Origin: a virus | Taxonomy: Duplodnaviria > Caudoviricetes | Strand: one strand, 5' to 3' | IMG/VR virus record: IMGVR_UViG_3300038379_000086 | Coordinates: 1-33,431 of that record | Length of the DNA: 33,431 bases | Shown here: positions 20,099-27,232 of the stretch, piece after piece | Layout: each line of letters begins with the position of its first letter | Numbering within the stretch: the stretch's first letter is position 1 | The notes under the pieces: model-generated | Told to the model about the DNA's origin: nothing | Database searches by the model: none | The model's input: only the letters and a program-made list of their open reading frames with translations | Translations under genes and position numbers: made by a program

Positions 20099-20902
20099 TT
20101 ACGACGTGGTAAGCGAGCGGATCGCCGTCGAAGACGCTTCGTTCTTGCACACAAGCGTGTACTCAACCGTAAGCAGCTTCTTGTTGCTGTCGCCGGTCTT
20201 GCCGAGATCCGTCGGCGTGATCGGATCAAGATATGCCACCTGGAACATATCCATTTGCAACGCAAAGGCCGTGCGTTCCCGCTGGAAGCGGTTCGGCTTA
20301 ACCTTCAGGCTGCCCCAATCAGACACGTAGACATCGATCGCCGTTACCAGCTTCATCTCCTCCGCATCGCCCATGCGGGTTTGATTGCCGGTGAAAGCCG
20401 AAACGACGGTCTTGTTGAACGGCCCGACCATGATGCAGTCCGGCTCACCGCCTGAGGTGAAACAGTTCTGCAACCCGGTCTTCAGAAGGCTCTCAGTGAA
20501 AGCGCGCTGCGTGCCGTCCGAGATGACAACCCAGTTGCCGGACGAGAAGCCGCCGCCTGTGTCGCCGTTCACGACGTCGTTCGTCGTCAACATCGTCTCA
20601 AGACTGCCGAGCTTGCGCGCAGTCGTGGTATTGCCGGTCACCGACGCTTGGTTCTGCGTCATGATGGCTTCCATGTCGCGCTTCAGCTCTTTCGTCTTTT
20701 TGACGAGCTGATAGGCCATTTCAGTGCCGCGCCCGGCCTTGTTGATGATGTCTTCCGTGCGCGTGATGGTGAACGGCTTCGCGCTGATCTGACAGCGGTT
20801 GCCGATGCGTGTCGTCGGCGTGATTGCCGCCGCCGAGTAGTCGTCGCCTTCGAGTTGGGCATTCGACGTGCTGGCCGCAGCCAACGCATCAGTCTGCCAT
20901 TC
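20099..20902 (-). CDS. Major capsid protein, exon 2 (SU10-MCP/DUF5309-like)
   Basis: Begins GAA TGG CAG ACT GAT (EWQTDALAAA) right after the intron terminal G; NAQLEGDD, RIGNRCQI, KELKRDME, IDVYVSDWG, LGKTGDS motifs. Confidence 0.93.
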   Translation of the reverse strand, partial: EWQTDALAAASTSNAQLEGDDYSAAAITPTTRIGNRCQISAKPFTITRTEDIINKAGRGTEMAYQLVKKTKELKRDMEAIMTQNQASVTGNTTTARKLGSLETMLTTNDVVNGDTGGGFSSGNWVVISDGTQRAFTESLLKTGLQNCFTSGGEPDCIMVGPFNKTVVSAFTGNQTRMGDAEEMKLVTAIDVYVSDWGSLKVKPNRFQRERTAFALQMDMFQVAYLDPITPTDLGKTGDSNKKLLTVEYTLVCKNEASSTAIRSLTTS

Positions 20903-21780
20903 CTTTTTGTTACTTTCGCTTGCGCGAAGGATTGGACATTTCTGCCAACCTCAGCATCTTTCGATTGCTGTTCGGACTATATCATCAGCCGAAGACTTTA
21001 CTCGGCTGTCTGTCGTGTAGTCTCTGAGCTTAGCCTACGCGGATAACGCGACCGCTCGCTGTACGGCTCTGTTGCCGCCCAACGATCCACGCGGTCTTGC
21101 TTCCTACGAATGTTGAAATACGCGCCTGCGTCAACCCAACTCTGCATCTTGATGCGAAACCGCGTTGGCACCTTGTAGCTAGGCTTTCTAGGAATTTCCT
21201 GACTAATCTTGCCAACACGAATTCCAACTGATTGCAGAATTTGAATGAACTCAGGCACCCAAACGTCACACGATTTGAAGCCCATATAGAACGAGCGGCC
21301 GATTATCCCGCCAGTTTTGTGAGCAACAAACCCCTCACTGTCCATGAGACCAGCGATGAATGCCAGCTTCAGATCAGCGTCCCATGAATGAACATAGTCC
21401 GGTATCTTCTGCTTCTTTTCCGTGTCTCGTTGCAGCTTGGCGCATAGCGCCTCGTCACCGCACCGAAGACAGGTTTTTGGCTTTCCTCGCGGCTCAGGAT
21501 AAGTGCGGTACCACACGCTTTGCGTCGTCAGGCACCGAAACGCCGCCGCAACCGCCTCGATGAAATCGAGGTCAATCGCGCTTTGGGTATATCTCAACCT
21601 TCGATATTTCCCGTTGTCGTCGTACTCATCAACGCTACCGTCTCCGAGGTAGACGCCCAACAGGTATGCGTAGCTCTTAGCTGCTGATCGGCCAATCATC
21701 ACGATTTTTCCGCTGCGGGACGTGAAGCTCTAAGGCTATTCCAGCATATAGACAGATTTCAGTTCGTCAAATGGTGATCA
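20903..21780 (-). ncRNA. Group I self-splicing intron (878 nt) in the major capsid gene
   Basis: P1 GTTCGTT/GACGAAC with U-G at the 5' splice site; P10 CCATTT/GAATGG; P element ATGCTGGAA, Q GATCAGCAG, R TCAGAGACTACA, S GATATAGTCC; P3 TCTGTC/GACAGA; P7 GACTA/TAGTC; terminal G; splicing restores the frame. Confidence 0.95.
20998..21702 (-). CDS. Intron-encoded LAGLIDADG homing endonuclease (double motif)
   Basis: Motifs YLLGVYLGDG and AFIAGLMDSEG, with K.IPDY between them; lies wholly within the intron. Confidence 0.92.
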   Translation of the reverse strand: MMIGRSAAKSYAYLLGVYLGDGSVDEYDDNGKYRRLRYTQSAIDLDFIEAVAAAFRCLTTQSVWYRTYPEPRGKPKTCLRCGDEALCAKLQRDTEKKQKIPDYVHSWDADLKLAFIAGLMDSEGFVAHKTGGIIGRSFYMGFKSCDVWVPEFIQILQSVGIRVGKISQEIPRKPSYKVPTRFRIKMQSWVDAGAYFNIRRKQDRVDRWAATEPYSERSRYPRRLSSETTRQTAE

Positions 21781-21924
21781 AACGAACGTCGCCGTCGCCT
21801 TCGCCTTACCGATGCCAGACATGAAGGGCGTATCGGTTGGCGAGATATTCGCGATGTAGTCCAACAGCTGTTCGCGGTTGCCGATGCTGTCGAACGTGGT
21901 GAAAGCATTGGTAGGGATAGCCAT
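21781..21924 (-). CDS. Major capsid protein, exon 1 (48 codons)
   Basis: Not in the ORF track. MAIPTNAFTTFDSIGNREQLLDYIANISPTDTPFMSGIGKAKATATFV; starts 3 nt after the scaffold stop and meets an in-frame TGA at the intron start. Confidence 0.93.
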
Positions 21925-21927
21925 TTC

Positions 21928-22920
21928 TTACAGTCCTTGCAGTATCCTCGCCATGGCGTTCACCTGCTTATCGGTATTGCCACTGCGAAGAGCGGTTTTG
22001 AGGGATGCGTTGTCGAGCCCGTTTGGTGCCGACTTCTCGCCCTGCCCAGGTCTTGCAACCTTCGCAGGCGTCGCCTTATCGGCCTTGCCCTTTGCCTTTT
22101 CCAACGCCGCGATGGCCTTGCGACCTTCCACGGCATCCTTGAGCACCATGACCAAGCGGTGATCGGCCAGCCCATTCACTTCCGCATCTGAGAACCCGCG
22201 CTCTTTGGCGTAGTTGCTCAGATCGGAGCGAATTGCCGGACCTTTCGTTTGATCCACGAAGTCGGGCCACACTTTCGCCAGCGCTTCCGCCTCCTTGCCG
22301 AGATACTCGGCATGGCGCGCTTGCGCTTCGGCTTGCCGCTGATACTGAACCTGCGAGAGTTCGTTCAAGACAGAAGCCGCTTGCTGTTGGAACGCGGTGT
22401 ACCGCGCGGCAAGGGCTGGGTCTTTCTTTGAAACCTCGTAGAGATCGGCAGGCGACTTGATGGCCTTGAATTCGTCGGGGATCGACGCTTCCAGGTGCTT
22501 GGCGTGAGCGATTAATCGTTGCTCGTACGCGGTACGGTACTGATTGGCCCGTTCGGCTTCGGCTTCCGCCTTCTTCCGCACTTCGGCCGCTTCTTGAAGC
22601 TTGAGGTTGACGCCTTTTTCGCGCTCCGCCTCGCGCGAATTCAGGAATTCCTGAACGTTGCGAGGTAGCGTTCTGAACGTCTCCTTGGCTTCGGCATCCC
22701 ATGAGGTCGGGGGCTCGATGGCCGGCTCAGCCGGTTCGCGCTTGGCCTTTTCCTCTCCGCTGGCCGCCTTCTCAGGCGGTGCATCATCGTCCGAACCGGG
22801 ATCAGGCTCGTCCGAATTCCGTTCATCGTCGACAAGCGTGCCGCCCTGCAGAAGCCCTGCGAGCTTTGACACATCATCGCCTTCAACCGTGCCGGCTGGC
22901 ACGTCGTTCTTGTCTGTCAT
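21928..22920 (-). CDS. Capsid scaffolding protein
   Basis: Acidic N-terminus, EPPTSW..EAKETF..LP, long coiled coils, directly upstream of the capsid gene. Confidence 0.8.
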   Translation of the reverse strand: MTDKNDVPAGTVEGDDVSKLAGLLQGGTLVDDERNSDEPDPGSDDDAPPEKAASGEEKAKREPAEPAIEPPTSWDAEAKETFRTLPRNVQEFLNSREAEREKGVNLKLQEAAEVRKKAEAEAERANQYRTAYEQRLIAHAKHLEASIPDEFKAIKSPADLYEVSKKDPALAARYTAFQQQAASVLNELSQVQYQRQAEAQARHAEYLGKEAEALAKVWPDFVDQTKGPAIRSDLSNYAKERGFSDAEVNGLADHRLVMVLKDAVEGRKAIAALEKAKGKADKATPAKVARPGQGEKSAPNGLDNASLKTALRSGNTDKQVNAMARILQGL

Positions 22921-22933
22921 CTCAATCGACCTT

Positions 22934-23227
22934 TCAGATTATGCCGAGGATTTTCTTGCGCTCTCCGAGGTCGGAAAGCTGCTTAGAGGCCAGGCGCCCC
23001 GTCTCGGCGAAACTGCGGATGTAGTCCTCGTACAGATCCGCAATGCGGATCATGAGGTAGATGCGCTCACGGCCTTCCGTGTCACGCGGCGGTGAATTCT
23101 TCCACTCTTCCATGAATTTCTTACGGATCGCCGATCGCGCTTCGACCCAGAGCGGATTTTCGAGCAAAGCCTCGGCGTCATGACCACGCTTGCGCTCGCC
23201 TTCCAACTTGTCCTCGTCAGCGGCCAA
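22934..23227 (-). CDS. Conserved small head-region protein
   Basis: ERKRGHDAEALLENP...W.NS...D.EGRERIY. TTG start at 23227 is inferred from the GGAGG RBS. Confidence 0.75.
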   Translation of the reverse strand: MAADEDKLEGERKRGHDAEALLENPLWVEARSAIRKKFMEEWKNSPPRDTEGRERIYLMIRIADLYEDYIRSFAETGRLASKQLSDLGERKKILGII

Positions 23228-24776
23228 ACAATGCCTCCAATGCCGCCATGAGCAAGATGCGCTCTTCCTCGATTTCACGCCTGCGGCGTTTCACGTGAAA
23301 CTCTTCAGCCATGTGCTGCGCTTCCAAGAGTTGCTCGTCTTGCCACTCTTGGAACACCCGCTCCGCCGTCTCAACGTAGAGGCGGCGCGCTTCCTCTTCC
23401 TGCTTGCGCCGCTCAAGTTCGGCCGCCGCTTCCTCGCCAATTGCGGCAAAGAATGCGGATAGATCGGCGCGTACAGGCCGGACAACCGGCTTCGGTGCCT
23501 CGGCTTGCGGCTCAAGTAGTGCACGCGCGAGAAGAGCGGCGGGACGGCGGCTGCGAATGGGGGAAACACTAGCCGCCGCCCCTGCCTCTGCATCGTCCTC
23601 ACCGCGGGGATCATCAGCGGGGTCGAGAGGTGGCGATGCAGTTCTGTCTTTGCGCCGCTTCAAGCGCTTGATTTTGCGCTTGCTGAACGGCGGCACCTTG
23701 CCGGCTGTAGGTGCAGCTACTTCCGGCGTGTCTTCAAGCGGCGAGCCGGTAAACCCGTCCGCGTATGCCTGCGGATATTCGTCCTCCAGGTCGTCATCGA
23801 CCGGGAACGAGACCGCATTGATGTCGTCATTCGCGCCGGGCGCATTCTCAAGAGGCGCGCCGAACCAGCCATTCGTGACCGGCTCATCGTCGTCGAACAC
23901 CTCGCCGAGCAGACGACCGAGAATGTCATCGTTCGGCGTTTCCTCGAGCGGTTCACTGAACCACCCCTCGGAAACAGGATCGTCATCGTCGTAAACTTCG
24001 CCGAGAAGCTGCCCAAGGATTGCATCCTCTGGCGTTTCCTCAATCGGTGAAGCAAACGAGCCGTCCGTGACGAGCTCATCGTCGTCGTAAATCTGGCCGC
24101 TTTCCTGCGGCCCGACGTCATCGACTGCTGCGCCTGGCGCGTCTTCGATCGGCCACGCAAACGAGCCGTCGGTAACCGGCTCGTCCTCGTCGACGTGATC
24201 GTTATTCGACGTATCTGCCGTCGTTTCGCCGGTTTCGTCGCTCGGAAACGCGGTTGGCGTCGCCGTAACGAACTCAACGATAGGTTCGTCATCGTCGAAC
24301 ACCTCGCCAAGCAGCTTGCTTAGCGGTGCATTCTCCTCGAAGTCGGGCGGGGAACTGAATGTCCCGTCAGTTACCGGCTCGTCTTCGTCAACCCAGTCGT
24401 TGTTCGAGACTTGGCCGCGCGTTTCGCCTGTTTCGTCGGCGATGTCCTTCGGCGGGGCTTGCGCCCAGTCAGGAGTCCATTCGTCTTTGTCTATGATCCA
24501 GACCGGATCGTCGAACACCTTGTTGGCCGGCGTCGTGTCAACCGGCGTGTCTTCAAGCGGCGATGCCGTCACGCCTTCGTACAGTAGTCCGGCATCTTCG
24601 ATTTCATCGCCATAGGACGCATCGGCAAATGCCGATGTCATTTGAACCGGTATGGTTTCCTCTGTGGCCGCCGGATCTTCGAGCGGCAGCGTATCGTCAA
24701 CCGTCTCATGGAAATTGTAGAGGTGAGCCCAGAACTCGCCGAGAAATCTTCCGAAGATGTTTCCGACGGTCGCCAT
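23217..24776 (-). CDS. Very acidic repeat-containing protein, function unknown
   Basis: 519 aa; repeated (GEV/GQI)(F/Y)DDDEPVTDGxFxxPLExxP units, then a basic patch and a C-terminal coiled coil. Confidence 0.8.
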   Translation of the reverse strand: MATVGNIFGRFLGEFWAHLYNFHETVDDTLPLEDPAATEETIPVQMTSAFADASYGDEIEDAGLLYEGVTASPLEDTPVDTTPANKVFDDPVWIIDKDEWTPDWAQAPPKDIADETGETRGQVSNNDWVDEDEPVTDGTFSSPPDFEENAPLSKLLGEVFDDDEPIVEFVTATPTAFPSDETGETTADTSNNDHVDEDEPVTDGSFAWPIEDAPGAAVDDVGPQESGQIYDDDELVTDGSFASPIEETPEDAILGQLLGEVYDDDDPVSEGWFSEPLEETPNDDILGRLLGEVFDDDEPVTNGWFGAPLENAPGANDDINAVSFPVDDDLEDEYPQAYADGFTGSPLEDTPEVAAPTAGKVPPFSKRKIKRLKRRKDRTASPPLDPADDPRGEDDAEAGAAASVSPIRSRRPAALLARALLEPQAEAPKPVVRPVRADLSAFFAAIGEEAAAELERRKQEEEARRLYVETAERVFQEWQDEQLLEAQHMAEEFHVKRRRREIEEERILLMAALEALFGR

Positions 24777-24780
24777 CGGA

Positions 24781-25950
24781 TCAGCCGTCCACGGTCGTGA
24801 AAGTACCGCGCCAATCCGTTACGCCGGTCGAGCTTGCCGGGCTTGGCATAATAAGAGCTAGACACGCGTCGTCGAAGATGCGCACCAAATTATGCGTCTG
24901 CAGCCAATGAAACGGCCAAACGAAGTTCGCTATCGGAACTGGCATCCAAGCGATGGGATGGCCAATCACGAAATTAGGCGAACCCGTCACCGACGCCGAG
25001 CATTGCATCTGCTCCAAGTCTTTGATGCCCGTGTCGCCGCTCGCGAGCGGCGCAAACCATTGCCCAGCCGGATGGTCGTAGTCACCGACGGTATCGCTGT
25101 CAGTGTTTCCGGCGAGGGATGGTAGCGTCGCGCCTGTATTGCCGGACTGATCTTCGTAAAGGCACACCGTCCAATTGTGAGCAACGGCTCCCATAGTTGC
25201 GGCGACTTCGACGAATAGGAAATTGCCCTCTGCGCTGTCCTGCGCGCCCTGTGTTGTAGACTGATAGCGCGTGGGGACACCGGTGACCGCTTCCGTCGCG
25301 GTCGACGATGCTGTTTTGGCAACGTGAAACAAACGATCATAAAGCAATAGCGTGTTCGGCTGCGTCGCCACCAATGACGCACGAACGAAGTGCCGCGTAT
25401 CGCCGGCAAGCGGATTTTCAAACCTGAAGGCTCCAGTCGTTGTTCGGGTTGGGGCGTTCCCGCCTGGCGCTGCTGGTGCACTAACCGCTCCGGCCGGTGG
25501 CAATGCGCCCAAGGCCCAAAGCGAAACAGAACGCTGCGCTTTGGGATCCGTACTGTTCTTCAAAAACGGAAAGACCAGCTCCTTTCCGTGCTCACTTTCC
25601 GACACAAGATCAGCGAGCCCAGAAAACCCTGTCCCCATAACCAATTGCGCGCGCTTAGGTGCGCGCCGCCAGATGCGACGCAACCGGGCCGCGCCATCGG
25701 CCAGCCAATCCTGAAGTGTGGCCTCGTAACCCGCGCGCAAGACGCCGCGAAAATCCCCGCCCTTGTGGATATAGACCGCACCCGGCACACCGCTGACCGC
25801 TATCGGCGGGCCATACCAGTCGCGCATGTTCTGTGAAAGATGCTCGGTCGTTTCCCTTCCGAGCCAGCGTTCAAGCCGCGAGGCGTTGACCGAGCGTCCC
25901 CCGACATGAACGCCGGAATGCTGAACCGTCCGCCCCTTGATGATCTGCAT
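24781..25950 (-). CDS. Hypothetical protein, paralog B of a tandem pair
   Basis: 389 aa, colinear and highly similar to 25957-27111. Confidence 0.85.
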   Translation of the reverse strand: MQIIKGRTVQHSGVHVGGRSVNASRLERWLGRETTEHLSQNMRDWYGPPIAVSGVPGAVYIHKGGDFRGVLRAGYEATLQDWLADGAARLRRIWRRAPKRAQLVMGTGFSGLADLVSESEHGKELVFPFLKNSTDPKAQRSVSLWALGALPPAGAVSAPAAPGGNAPTRTTTGAFRFENPLAGDTRHFVRASLVATQPNTLLLYDRLFHVAKTASSTATEAVTGVPTRYQSTTQGAQDSAEGNFLFVEVAATMGAVAHNWTVCLYEDQSGNTGATLPSLAGNTDSDTVGDYDHPAGQWFAPLASGDTGIKDLEQMQCSASVTGSPNFVIGHPIAWMPVPIANFVWPFHWLQTHNLVRIFDDACLALIMPSPASSTGVTDWRGTFTTVDG

Positions 25951-25956
25951 CAGACA

Positions 25957-27111
25957 CTAGCCCCTAATTGTGGCGAATGTGCCTGTGTAAGTGGTGGCCC
26001 CGGTCGCTGGCTTCGACACTTCGAGAAACGCCAACGCAGCGTCGTCAAAAATGCGCGTCAGCTTGAAGATCGAGCGGTAGTCTGTCGGGCACACGATATT
26101 CACTATCGGGCAAGGCATCCAGGCAATCGGGTGTCCAATGACAAAACTGACTGTGCCCGTGACCGAGGCCGAACATTGCATCTGTTCGAGGTCTTGAATG
26201 CCCGTGTCGCCGCTCGCGAGCGGCGCGAACCATTGCTGAACTGGATGGTCAAGGCGGTTGATGATACCAGATGAGTTGCCGGTTAAGGACGGCAGCGTTT
26301 GCCCCGTGTTCCCGGACTGATCTTCATAGAGGCACGTGGTCCAGTTGTGAGCGGTCGCGCCGAGTGCGGCTTGAATTTCGACGAAGAGAAAATTGCCCTC
26401 TGCGCTGTCCGCCGCACCAGCCGTTCCCGATTGATACCGCGTCGGAACGCCGGTAACCGCCTCGGCGGCCGTGCTTGACATCGTTTTTTGCACTTGGAAG
26501 ATGCGGTCATAGAGCAACAGTGTATTGGCAAGGCTCGCCAGCGGCCAAGCGCTCAAGATGTGCTGCGTATCGCCGCCCGTCGGATTGTCGAATGCGAAAG
26601 CCCCAGTAGTTGCATCGGTTGGAGCGTCACCGCCAGGGGCCGCCGACGACGCGCCTGCTGCAATTGGCTGATTACCAACGCGCCACAGCGAGTTGGTTGC
26701 GCCGACAACGCCGGTGGTGCCGACCTTTTGGAATGAGAACTCGCGCTGCTTACCTGCCGTCGCCTCTGCGATCATGTCTGAGAGCGACGTGAAACCTGCG
26801 CCCATAATCAACTGGCTGCGCTTGGGCGCGATCCGAAACGCTCTAGCGATGCGACGGAAACGGTCGCGCACGAAGTCAAGCGCCGTCGCCTCGTAGCCTG
26901 AACGCAGAACGCCGCGAAAGTCACCGCCCTTATGCGCGTACACTGCCCCAGGAACATTCGCAACCGCTATCGGAGGGCCATACCAATCTTTCATCAACGC
27001 AGAAACATGTTCGCATTCCTCCACGCCGAGCCAGCGTTCCAATTGCGAAGCATTGACCGAGCGGTGTTTGATCGTCGGCGGGGCCGGCAAGCTGATCACT
27101 TTATTGGACAT
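25957..27111 (-). CDS. Hypothetical protein, paralog A of a tandem pair
   Basis: Start at ATG 27111 (MSNKVISLP) inferred; shares SVNASxLERWLG, DWYGPPIAV, NTLLLYDR, WFAPLASGDTGI, RIFDDA with paralog B. Confidence 0.85.
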   Translation of the reverse strand: MSNKVISLPAPPTIKHRSVNASQLERWLGVEECEHVSALMKDWYGPPIAVANVPGAVYAHKGGDFRGVLRSGYEATALDFVRDRFRRIARAFRIAPKRSQLIMGAGFTSLSDMIAEATAGKQREFSFQKVGTTGVVGATNSLWRVGNQPIAAGASSAAPGGDAPTDATTGAFAFDNPTGGDTQHILSAWPLASLANTLLLYDRIFQVQKTMSSTAAEAVTGVPTRYQSGTAGAADSAEGNFLFVEIQAALGATAHNWTTCLYEDQSGNTGQTLPSLTGNSSGIINRLDHPVQQWFAPLASGDTGIQDLEQMQCSASVTGTVSFVIGHPIAWMPCPIVNIVCPTDYRSIFKLTRIFDDAALAFLEVSKPATGATTYTGTFATIRG

Positions 27112-27115
27112 GGGC

Positions 27116-27232
27116 TCATCCACTTCCCTGGCCAGGCTTGGCGAAAGCAATCAGATCGCCGCATTTCAAGCACTCGAATAGCACTTCGTCGTCGTCTTCC
27201 TTGACGAAGACAAGTGCGTGCGCGGCCATCAT
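27116..27232 (-). CDS. 38-aa CxxC mini-protein
   Basis: MMAAHALVFVKEDDDEVLFECLKCGDLIAFAKPGQGSG; exactly fills the gap between two genes. Confidence 0.5.
   Translation of the reverse strand: MMAAHALVFVKEDDDEVLFECLKCGDLIAFAKPGQGSG

Follow-up and report, generated by a model that had tools for sequence, protein, structure and literature searches.

A split capsid gene on a podovirus-like contig

We analysed the whole of a viral contig (hereafter, the window; 33,431 bases), which has no exact terminal repeat and may be an incomplete genome. Pfam and PHROG profiles identified a podovirus-like morphogenesis block on the minus strand that comprises terminase, SU10 portal, scaffold, capsid, SU10 adaptor, DNA-ejection proteins and endolysin. 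Between the portal and scaffold genes lies a gene for a 519-aa protein (23217-24776, minus strand) with 24% Asp + Glu and repeated DDDEPVT-like motifs, for which there was no Pfam, PHROG or usable Atlas match. Two adjacent genes (24781-25950 and 25957-27150, minus strand) form a paralogous pair; their products, of ~390 aa each, are alike lengthwise by eye, and neither matched a Pfam or PHROG family. The contig has a single major capsid gene, which is in two pieces, the break falling after codon 48. The features of the capsid locus are as follows:

21928..22920, minus strand: head scaffolding gene (phrog_3927), directly upstream of capsid exon 1
21781..21924, minus strand: major capsid exon 1, 48 codons with an ATG start (Pfam SU10_MCP, E 8e-08; phrog_1328, E 9e-11)
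20903..21780, minus strand: group I intron, 878 nt, IB4-like, starting with an in-frame TGA and ending in G
20998..21702, minus strand: ORF of 705 nt for a two-motif LAGLIDADG homing endonuclease of 234 aa (PF14528 LAGLIDADG_3, above cut-off)
20099..20902, minus strand: major capsid exon 2, 267 codons and the stop (Pfam SU10_MCP, E 7e-76; phrog_1328, E 2e-76)

Exon 1 is preceded by an AAGGA motif resembling a ribosome-binding site. When joined, the exons read as one open frame of 315 aa, the spliced product that an initial annotation of this DNA had proposed, and both pieces match SU10_MCP (PF17236) above cut-off, exon 1 over positions 3-41 and exon 2 over positions 44-292. The closest annotated capsids, all less than 47% identical, belong to Pelagibacter phage HTVC106P, Sinorhizobium phage phiM5, a Bradyrhizobium phage and uncultured phages from freshwater; exon 2 has matches in 297 GenBank phage records, every one at below 60% identity.

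We scanned for relatives of exon 2, which yielded at least 595 in 29 of 64 parts scanned, and kept the best 80. All 80 of these best relatives (of at least 595) are uninterrupted at x|EWQTD and colinear across the junction with a 0-nt gap, as the initial annotation had expected of homologous capsids. The residue before the junction in this set of 80 intronless relatives, again the best of at least 595, is His in 72, Glu in three, Phe in three, Lys in one and Thr in one. Val, encoded by the pre-junction codon of the window (exon end TTC GTT), occurs in none of these best 80, and hence confirmation of the junction does not extend to every residue. The pre-junction codon requires a U, and the guide sequence of the intron matches the window's exon end. 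Many alternative junctions also leave an open frame, but only 21781|20902 unites the U-G pair of P1, the terminal G and a zero gap. We discarded a conservation peak at the insertion site as circular, because EWQTDALA had served as a seed in the search for relatives.

The insert has the anatomy of a group I intron

The insert, which is 51.5% G+C compared with 58.7% for the window, contains the following ribozyme elements, all on the minus strand:

21762..21787: P1 (7 bp, with U-G at the 5′ splice site; strands 21787-21781/21768-21762) and the internal guide sequence
21774-21769/20902-20897: P10, 6 bp, from pairing
21680..21756: 5′ half of the ribozyme, with the P3 5′ strand, P4, P5, P5a, P5b and the P6 5′ strand, from pairing and family co-variation
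21756-21751/21014-21009: P3, from pairing
21746-21742/21686-21682: P4, from pairing
21041..21667: P6a loop of 627 nt, holding most of the endonuclease gene (helix 21675-21668/21040-21032)
20903..21029: 3′ half of the ribozyme, with the P6 3′ strand, P7, the P3 3′ strand, P8, P9, P9.1, P9.2, GTAACA and the terminal G, from pairing and conservation
21022-21018/20979-20975: P7, from pairing
21008-21001/20993-20986: P8, from pairing
20903: terminal G, from the sequence

The motifs named in the initial annotation (P1, P10, P3, P4, P7, P8, the terminal G and the in-frame TGA) all lie where it placed them and pair as it described. It was also right that P2 is absent, since only 5 nt separate P1 from P3. 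The P4-P5-P6 domain is present, as is the P3/P7/P8 core with its pseudoknot and the G-binding G-C pair. The annotation needs correction at the 3′ end: the P9 hairpins capped by GAAA and GCAA tetraloops exist, but there are three 3′ hairpins (loops GAAA, GAAA and GCAA) rather than two. Similarly, its description of the splice signals as fully readable holds for P1, P10 and the terminal G, but not for P9.0, an optional element that does not form in the window's intron, where AA faces AA. The covariance-model search that it had suggested gave a match to Rfam RF00028 (31.8 bits, E 1.5e-4), but one below the gathering score of 50; only the 3′ half is sensibly aligned, and the 627-nt insert splits the model.

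By eye, the intron appears to be IB4-like. Its P3-P4, P4-P6, P7-P3, S-element, P9.1 and 3′-end motifs look near-identical to those published for IB4.5 (Nawrocki et al. 2018, PMC6125680), and like IB4.5 it has no P7.1 or P7.2; P5 is extended, and the gap between P7 and P3 is just 3 nt. We rejected assignment to subgroup IA (IA2/IA3) because the extra helices expected between P7 and P3 are missing. An ORF in P6 has been reported for IA3.1, but that intron has two additional helices after P7 that the window's intron lacks (PMC6125680). The archaeal IB4 and IA3 introns of that study carry LAGLIDADG genes; the archaeal IB4 introns reside in rRNA, whereas the intron described here is in a phage mRNA (PMC6125680). 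A GTAACA motif a few bases 5′ of the 3′ splice site (20914-20908, minus strand) is kept in most introns of the family described below and in IB4.5; no pairing partner for it was identified.

The intron carries a LAGLIDADG endonuclease gene

The initial annotation overlooked the main cargo of the intron, the 705-nt LAGLIDADG ORF, which occupies most of the intron and overlaps the ribozyme core. The ORF starts with GTG in P5a, runs through P4, P6, P7 and P3, and stops with TAA in the P8 loop. Both core overlap of this kind, accompanied by tightly controlled expression, and stop codons that follow the upstream exon in frame have been described as recurrent features (PMC3984707). The enzymes encoded in phage introns are mostly of the GIY-YIG, HNH, PD-(D/E)xK and EDxHD types (PMC3984707), although one phage group I intron that carries a LAGLIDADG gene has been published (PMC11878797).

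The 234-aa protein has the motifs LGVYLGDG and IAGLMDSEG, and its acidic residues D21 and E123 are invariant in all 12 aligned sequences. Its predicted structure has a pLDDT of 86.6, and the top Foldseek matches are PI-PfuI, PI-SceI and I-DmoI (TM by query 0.55-0.68, E 6e-09 to 2e-08). These monomeric LAGLIDADG enzymes share its two-motif fold, but they are only 13-20% identical to it and derive from an archaeal intron and from inteins, whereas the predicted target of the window's enzyme is the capsid-gene junction. Because it contains a LAGLIDADG gene, the intron is likely to be a mobile element. Relative to 56 family members, the enzyme has a rough median identity of ~34% for its N-terminal domain but 65% for its C-terminal one; such N-terminal divergence would be consistent with a domain that follows the exon-1 half of the target, which is variable.

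Splicing might need help from a protein, with the LAGLIDADG protein or a host chaperone acting as maturase. There is precedent in the maturase-like activity of a LAGLIDADG protein in a Thermotoga 23S intron and in the host chaperones that assist T4 introns (PMC3984707); the absence of P2 and P9.0, and the C-terminal 20 residues of the endonuclease, which are basic and modelled with low confidence, point in the same direction. However, the intron has a complete set of core helices and of tetraloop hairpins in P9, and the same capsid gene in locus L091 contains an ORF-less group I intron (L091:2566-2804, 78.7 bits), albeit a different intron from that of the family. We consider a requirement for protein help improbable.

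A family of related introns co-varies with its exons

The first 12 relatives of the endonuclease that we found all lie inside the same capsid gene. Alignment searches with the endonuclease then gave 168 loci (57 viral, 80 metagenome and 31 genome, overlapping each other and the first 12), and a capsid match lies beside the enzyme in 110 of them. No endonuclease relative was found among the GenBank phage records of the collection; alphaproteobacterial MAGs carry two, one of which is inside a capsid intron. Both exons could be identified at the junction in 80 of the 110 loci and in the window, and removal of duplicates left 60 distinct introns, including that of the window; for 11 of the 60, boundaries were placed manually at the colinear junction.

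P1 has at least 6 bp with its own exon in 58 of the 60 introns, across 24 different exon heptamers; for guides set against the exons of other introns, the share is 17% (3540 cross pairs), or 35% where both introns occupy the same site (1680 cross pairs). Against the other 59 exons, the window's guide never forms more than 2 bp. Its fit to the window's own unusual exon end is the best sign that this copy has been kept working, and we regard the intron as very likely to be functional.

In the core, pairs in P3 are kept in 58-60 of the 60 introns, with up to six pair types; the first P7 pair is G-C in all 60 and the outer P7 pair forms in 35; P6 is paired in all 60 and P5 in 59-60; the outer P5b pair forms in 21 of 60 and the distal P6a pairs in 43-52. 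Compensatory changes occur across the family in P3, P4, P5, P5a, P6 and P7. For the 5′ structure we used 17 sequences chosen for spread, three rows of which are misaligned in P1; 90.5% of cells are paired and the covariation is 0.592, compared with 0.04-0.114 when slid, and none of 500 shuffles reached this value. Co-variation of the helices beyond chance across 60 introns thus upholds the identification of a group I intron and its splice sites. An in-frame stop lies no more than two codons from the 5′ site in 58 of 60 introns, an in-frame endonuclease start is found shortly before motif 1 in 59, and the second catalytic motif is present in 58.

We weighed the possibility that the element is dead, the window being a defective phage contig with a broken capsid gene. 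The sub-threshold Rfam score and the long terminal branch of the endonuclease (0.58-0.81) would be compatible with decay. However, the guide is a base-for-base match to this phage's own unusual exon end and suits none of the other exons. No core helix is broken, the reading frames of the two exons and of the endonuclease are open, and the portal, terminase, scaffold and adaptor genes are all present. We therefore consider a dead element very improbable.

Even less probable, to the point of being nearly negligible, is that there is no intron at all, and that a free-standing endonuclease gene separates two capsid pieces that are made separately, or that ribosomes bypass the insert. Exon 2 does contain an ORF of 261 aa starting with TTG, and close homologues of the endonuclease (51-71% identity; L231, L168, L195, L198, L202 and L209) occur without a capsid gene or a visible intron core. 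On either side, these six loci look alike, with a conserved stretch upstream and a small gene downstream, and their endonucleases may represent an escaped, free-standing form. Against the absence of an intron, the insert is spanned by a long-range P3/P7 pseudoknot that shows co-variation, each of the insert's three frames contains stops (5, 11 and 19), and the nearest AGGA is ~16 nt from the TTG.

A proposed model for splicing and homing

We consider it highly probable, from the sequence comparisons above, that an 878-nt IB4-like group I intron in the sole capsid gene self-splices from the late mRNA, and that it encodes a LAGLIDADG protein predicted to cut intron-free alleles and thereby to spread the intron. 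Group I chemistry consists of two transesterifications started by free guanosine (PMC6545197). By analogy, free guanosine bound at the P7 G-C pair would attack after the U-G pair of P1, and P10 and the terminal G would then set the 3′ site; the ligated mRNA would encode the 315-aa capsid protein. Ribosomes would come off at the in-frame TGA that follows exon 1, allowing the RNA to fold, and the location of the start codon in P5a and of a weak GGA in P5b suggests that RNA folding would limit synthesis of the enzyme. The enzyme, predicted to be monomeric, would act on intronless alleles carried by co-infecting phages, cutting at or close to the H/x-E-W-Q-T-D codons, after which repair would copy the intron into the cut allele. 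Dependence of the capsid protein on splicing, as claimed by the initial annotation, is well supported by comparison with relatives, and production of the phage's most abundant virion protein probably requires precise splicing of the RNA. A search of sequencing runs returned none from RNA. Annotation blind to the intron would give a capsid protein lacking its first 48 or more residues.

The endonuclease could double as a weapon, in that cutting the capsid gene of co-infecting relatives would lower their yield and so cause the intron to be retained. Such a role has been shown for an intron endonuclease of PhiPA3 (PMC11620839), the target gene here is essential, and the second catalytic motif is kept in nearly all introns of the family. 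However, ordinary homing accounts for the same data, and the nearest intronless capsids found are just 54-61% identical in protein sequence to that of the window, so that no natural target was found among them. A weapon role is possible but doubtful.

Insertion at closely spaced sites

Relative to the Glu codon, the 60 introns occupy five positions within 13 nt: -4 (one intron, L224), -1 (one, L219), 0 (36, including that of the window), +4 (21: L095, L098, L101 and 18 more) and +8 (one, L204). At site +4, the stop codon consists of the exon's U followed by two bases from the start of the intron. Repeated jumps between sites 0 and +4 may have occurred, a first tree implying 5-6 changes, but an AU test does not reject a single +4 origin (p 0.1).

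We mapped intron presence onto a capsid tree of 118 proteins, 49 with and 69 without an intron, the two sets having been gathered by different searches. Intron presence changes eight times on this tree, of which at least six changes are forced, and the window's capsid groups with three intronless capsids. This patchy distribution fits homing, although it could also reflect loss.

Family introns without a terminal G have P9.0

The final base of the 60 distinct introns is G in 50, A in nine (L104, L110, L112, L116, L118, L119, L166, L181 and L200) and C in one (L103). Both P9.0 pairs are present in all ten non-G introns but in only 20 of the 50 that end in G (Fisher p 8e-4, kinship ignored). The P9.0 of the non-G introns uses several different dinucleotide pairs, and the P7 G-C pair is kept in all of them. 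The presence of P9.0 in every non-G intron supports the boundaries set by hand, and suggests that P9.0 compensates for the missing terminal G. Splicing of group I introns without a terminal G has been published, which provides a precedent for the ten A- or C-ending relatives: the hexacoral ND5-717 intron, which lacks this base, ligates its exons exactly (PMC6545197), although ND5-717 is mitochondrial whereas the window's intron is phage-borne and ends in G.

Nine of the ten non-G introns form a single clade (SH-aLRT 97), with L104 separate. The window's enzyme is sister to the A-ending clade with an SH-aLRT of 95 under one model, but under LG+G4 this grouping is not among the starred sets, so that a sister relationship to the main A-ending lineage is weakly indicated. 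We tentatively propose, with somewhat less than even confidence, that the window's intron, which ends in G and has no P9.0, is sister to a phage lineage that dropped the terminal G and relies on P9.0 and P10 to fix its 3′ site, and that the family moved to five positions within 13 nt of a capsid motif by rewriting its guide while the endonuclease family stayed constant. If true, the G-less sister lineage and the re-targeting would provide a natural series both for splicing without a terminal G and for moves to neighbouring sites.

Relation to published introns

The initial annotation overrated the rarity of capsid-gene introns. This kind of element is already known, since group I introns in capsid genes have been published for LittleE (PMC3706429) and for crAss-like phages (PMC7886860). 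RT-PCR together with N-terminal sequencing has demonstrated splicing of the LittleE major capsid intron (Pope et al. 2013, PMC3706429). Like the window's intron, this one lies near the start of the major capsid gene, follows an exon-end U, ends in G and has a homing-endonuclease ORF. However, the LittleE ORF, described as similar to LAGLIDADG in the text of that report and as HNH in a legend, is on the opposite strand, whereas that of the window runs in the sense direction within P6a and overlaps with the core; the capsids and the phage types also differ. A capsid-gene intron in Tuc2009 is cited second-hand in the same report. In Delta and Zeta crAss-like phages, group I introns lie in the major capsid genes, which can be broken into as many as five ORF fragments each (Yutin et al. 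2021, PMC7886860). These, too, are capsid-gene introns of uncultured phages, but the phages are much larger and from the gut, and the introns were detected via endonuclease domains, with RNA structure and site-level analysis not given in the parts of that report covered here.

Coverage of mostly open literature gave no published description of introns in SU10-type capsid genes or of the five-site cluster. The parts covered of PMC12350094, PMC12880540 and PMC11835236 do not mention the family, and their supplements could list such introns. The window's copy adds a large intron family, in small podovirus-like phages, for which we found no description in print. The family offers particularly clear guide-exon co-variation, closely spaced sites, and matched G- and A-ending relatives for the study of 3′ splice-site choice.

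Several further observations concern the relatives. A rare C-G pair in P6 occurs in five of the 60 introns, namely that of the window and, by eye, L103, L112, L166 and L181. Six introns (L103, L105, L112, L166, L181 and L200) have ~100 extra nt in P6a, apparently encoding a zinc-finger-like Cys/His tail of the enzyme, and the enzymes of five of these six are 270-276 aa long. The same capsid gene is further broken near codons 20, 31, 73-86, 111, 160 and 242 in L091, L109, L150, L110, L119, L131, L179 and L181. Distant relatives of the enzyme (31-37% identity; L132, L135, L136 and L218) are found in introns resembling group I, hosted by a capsid-like gene that is itself more distant; some of them apparently occur in tandem.
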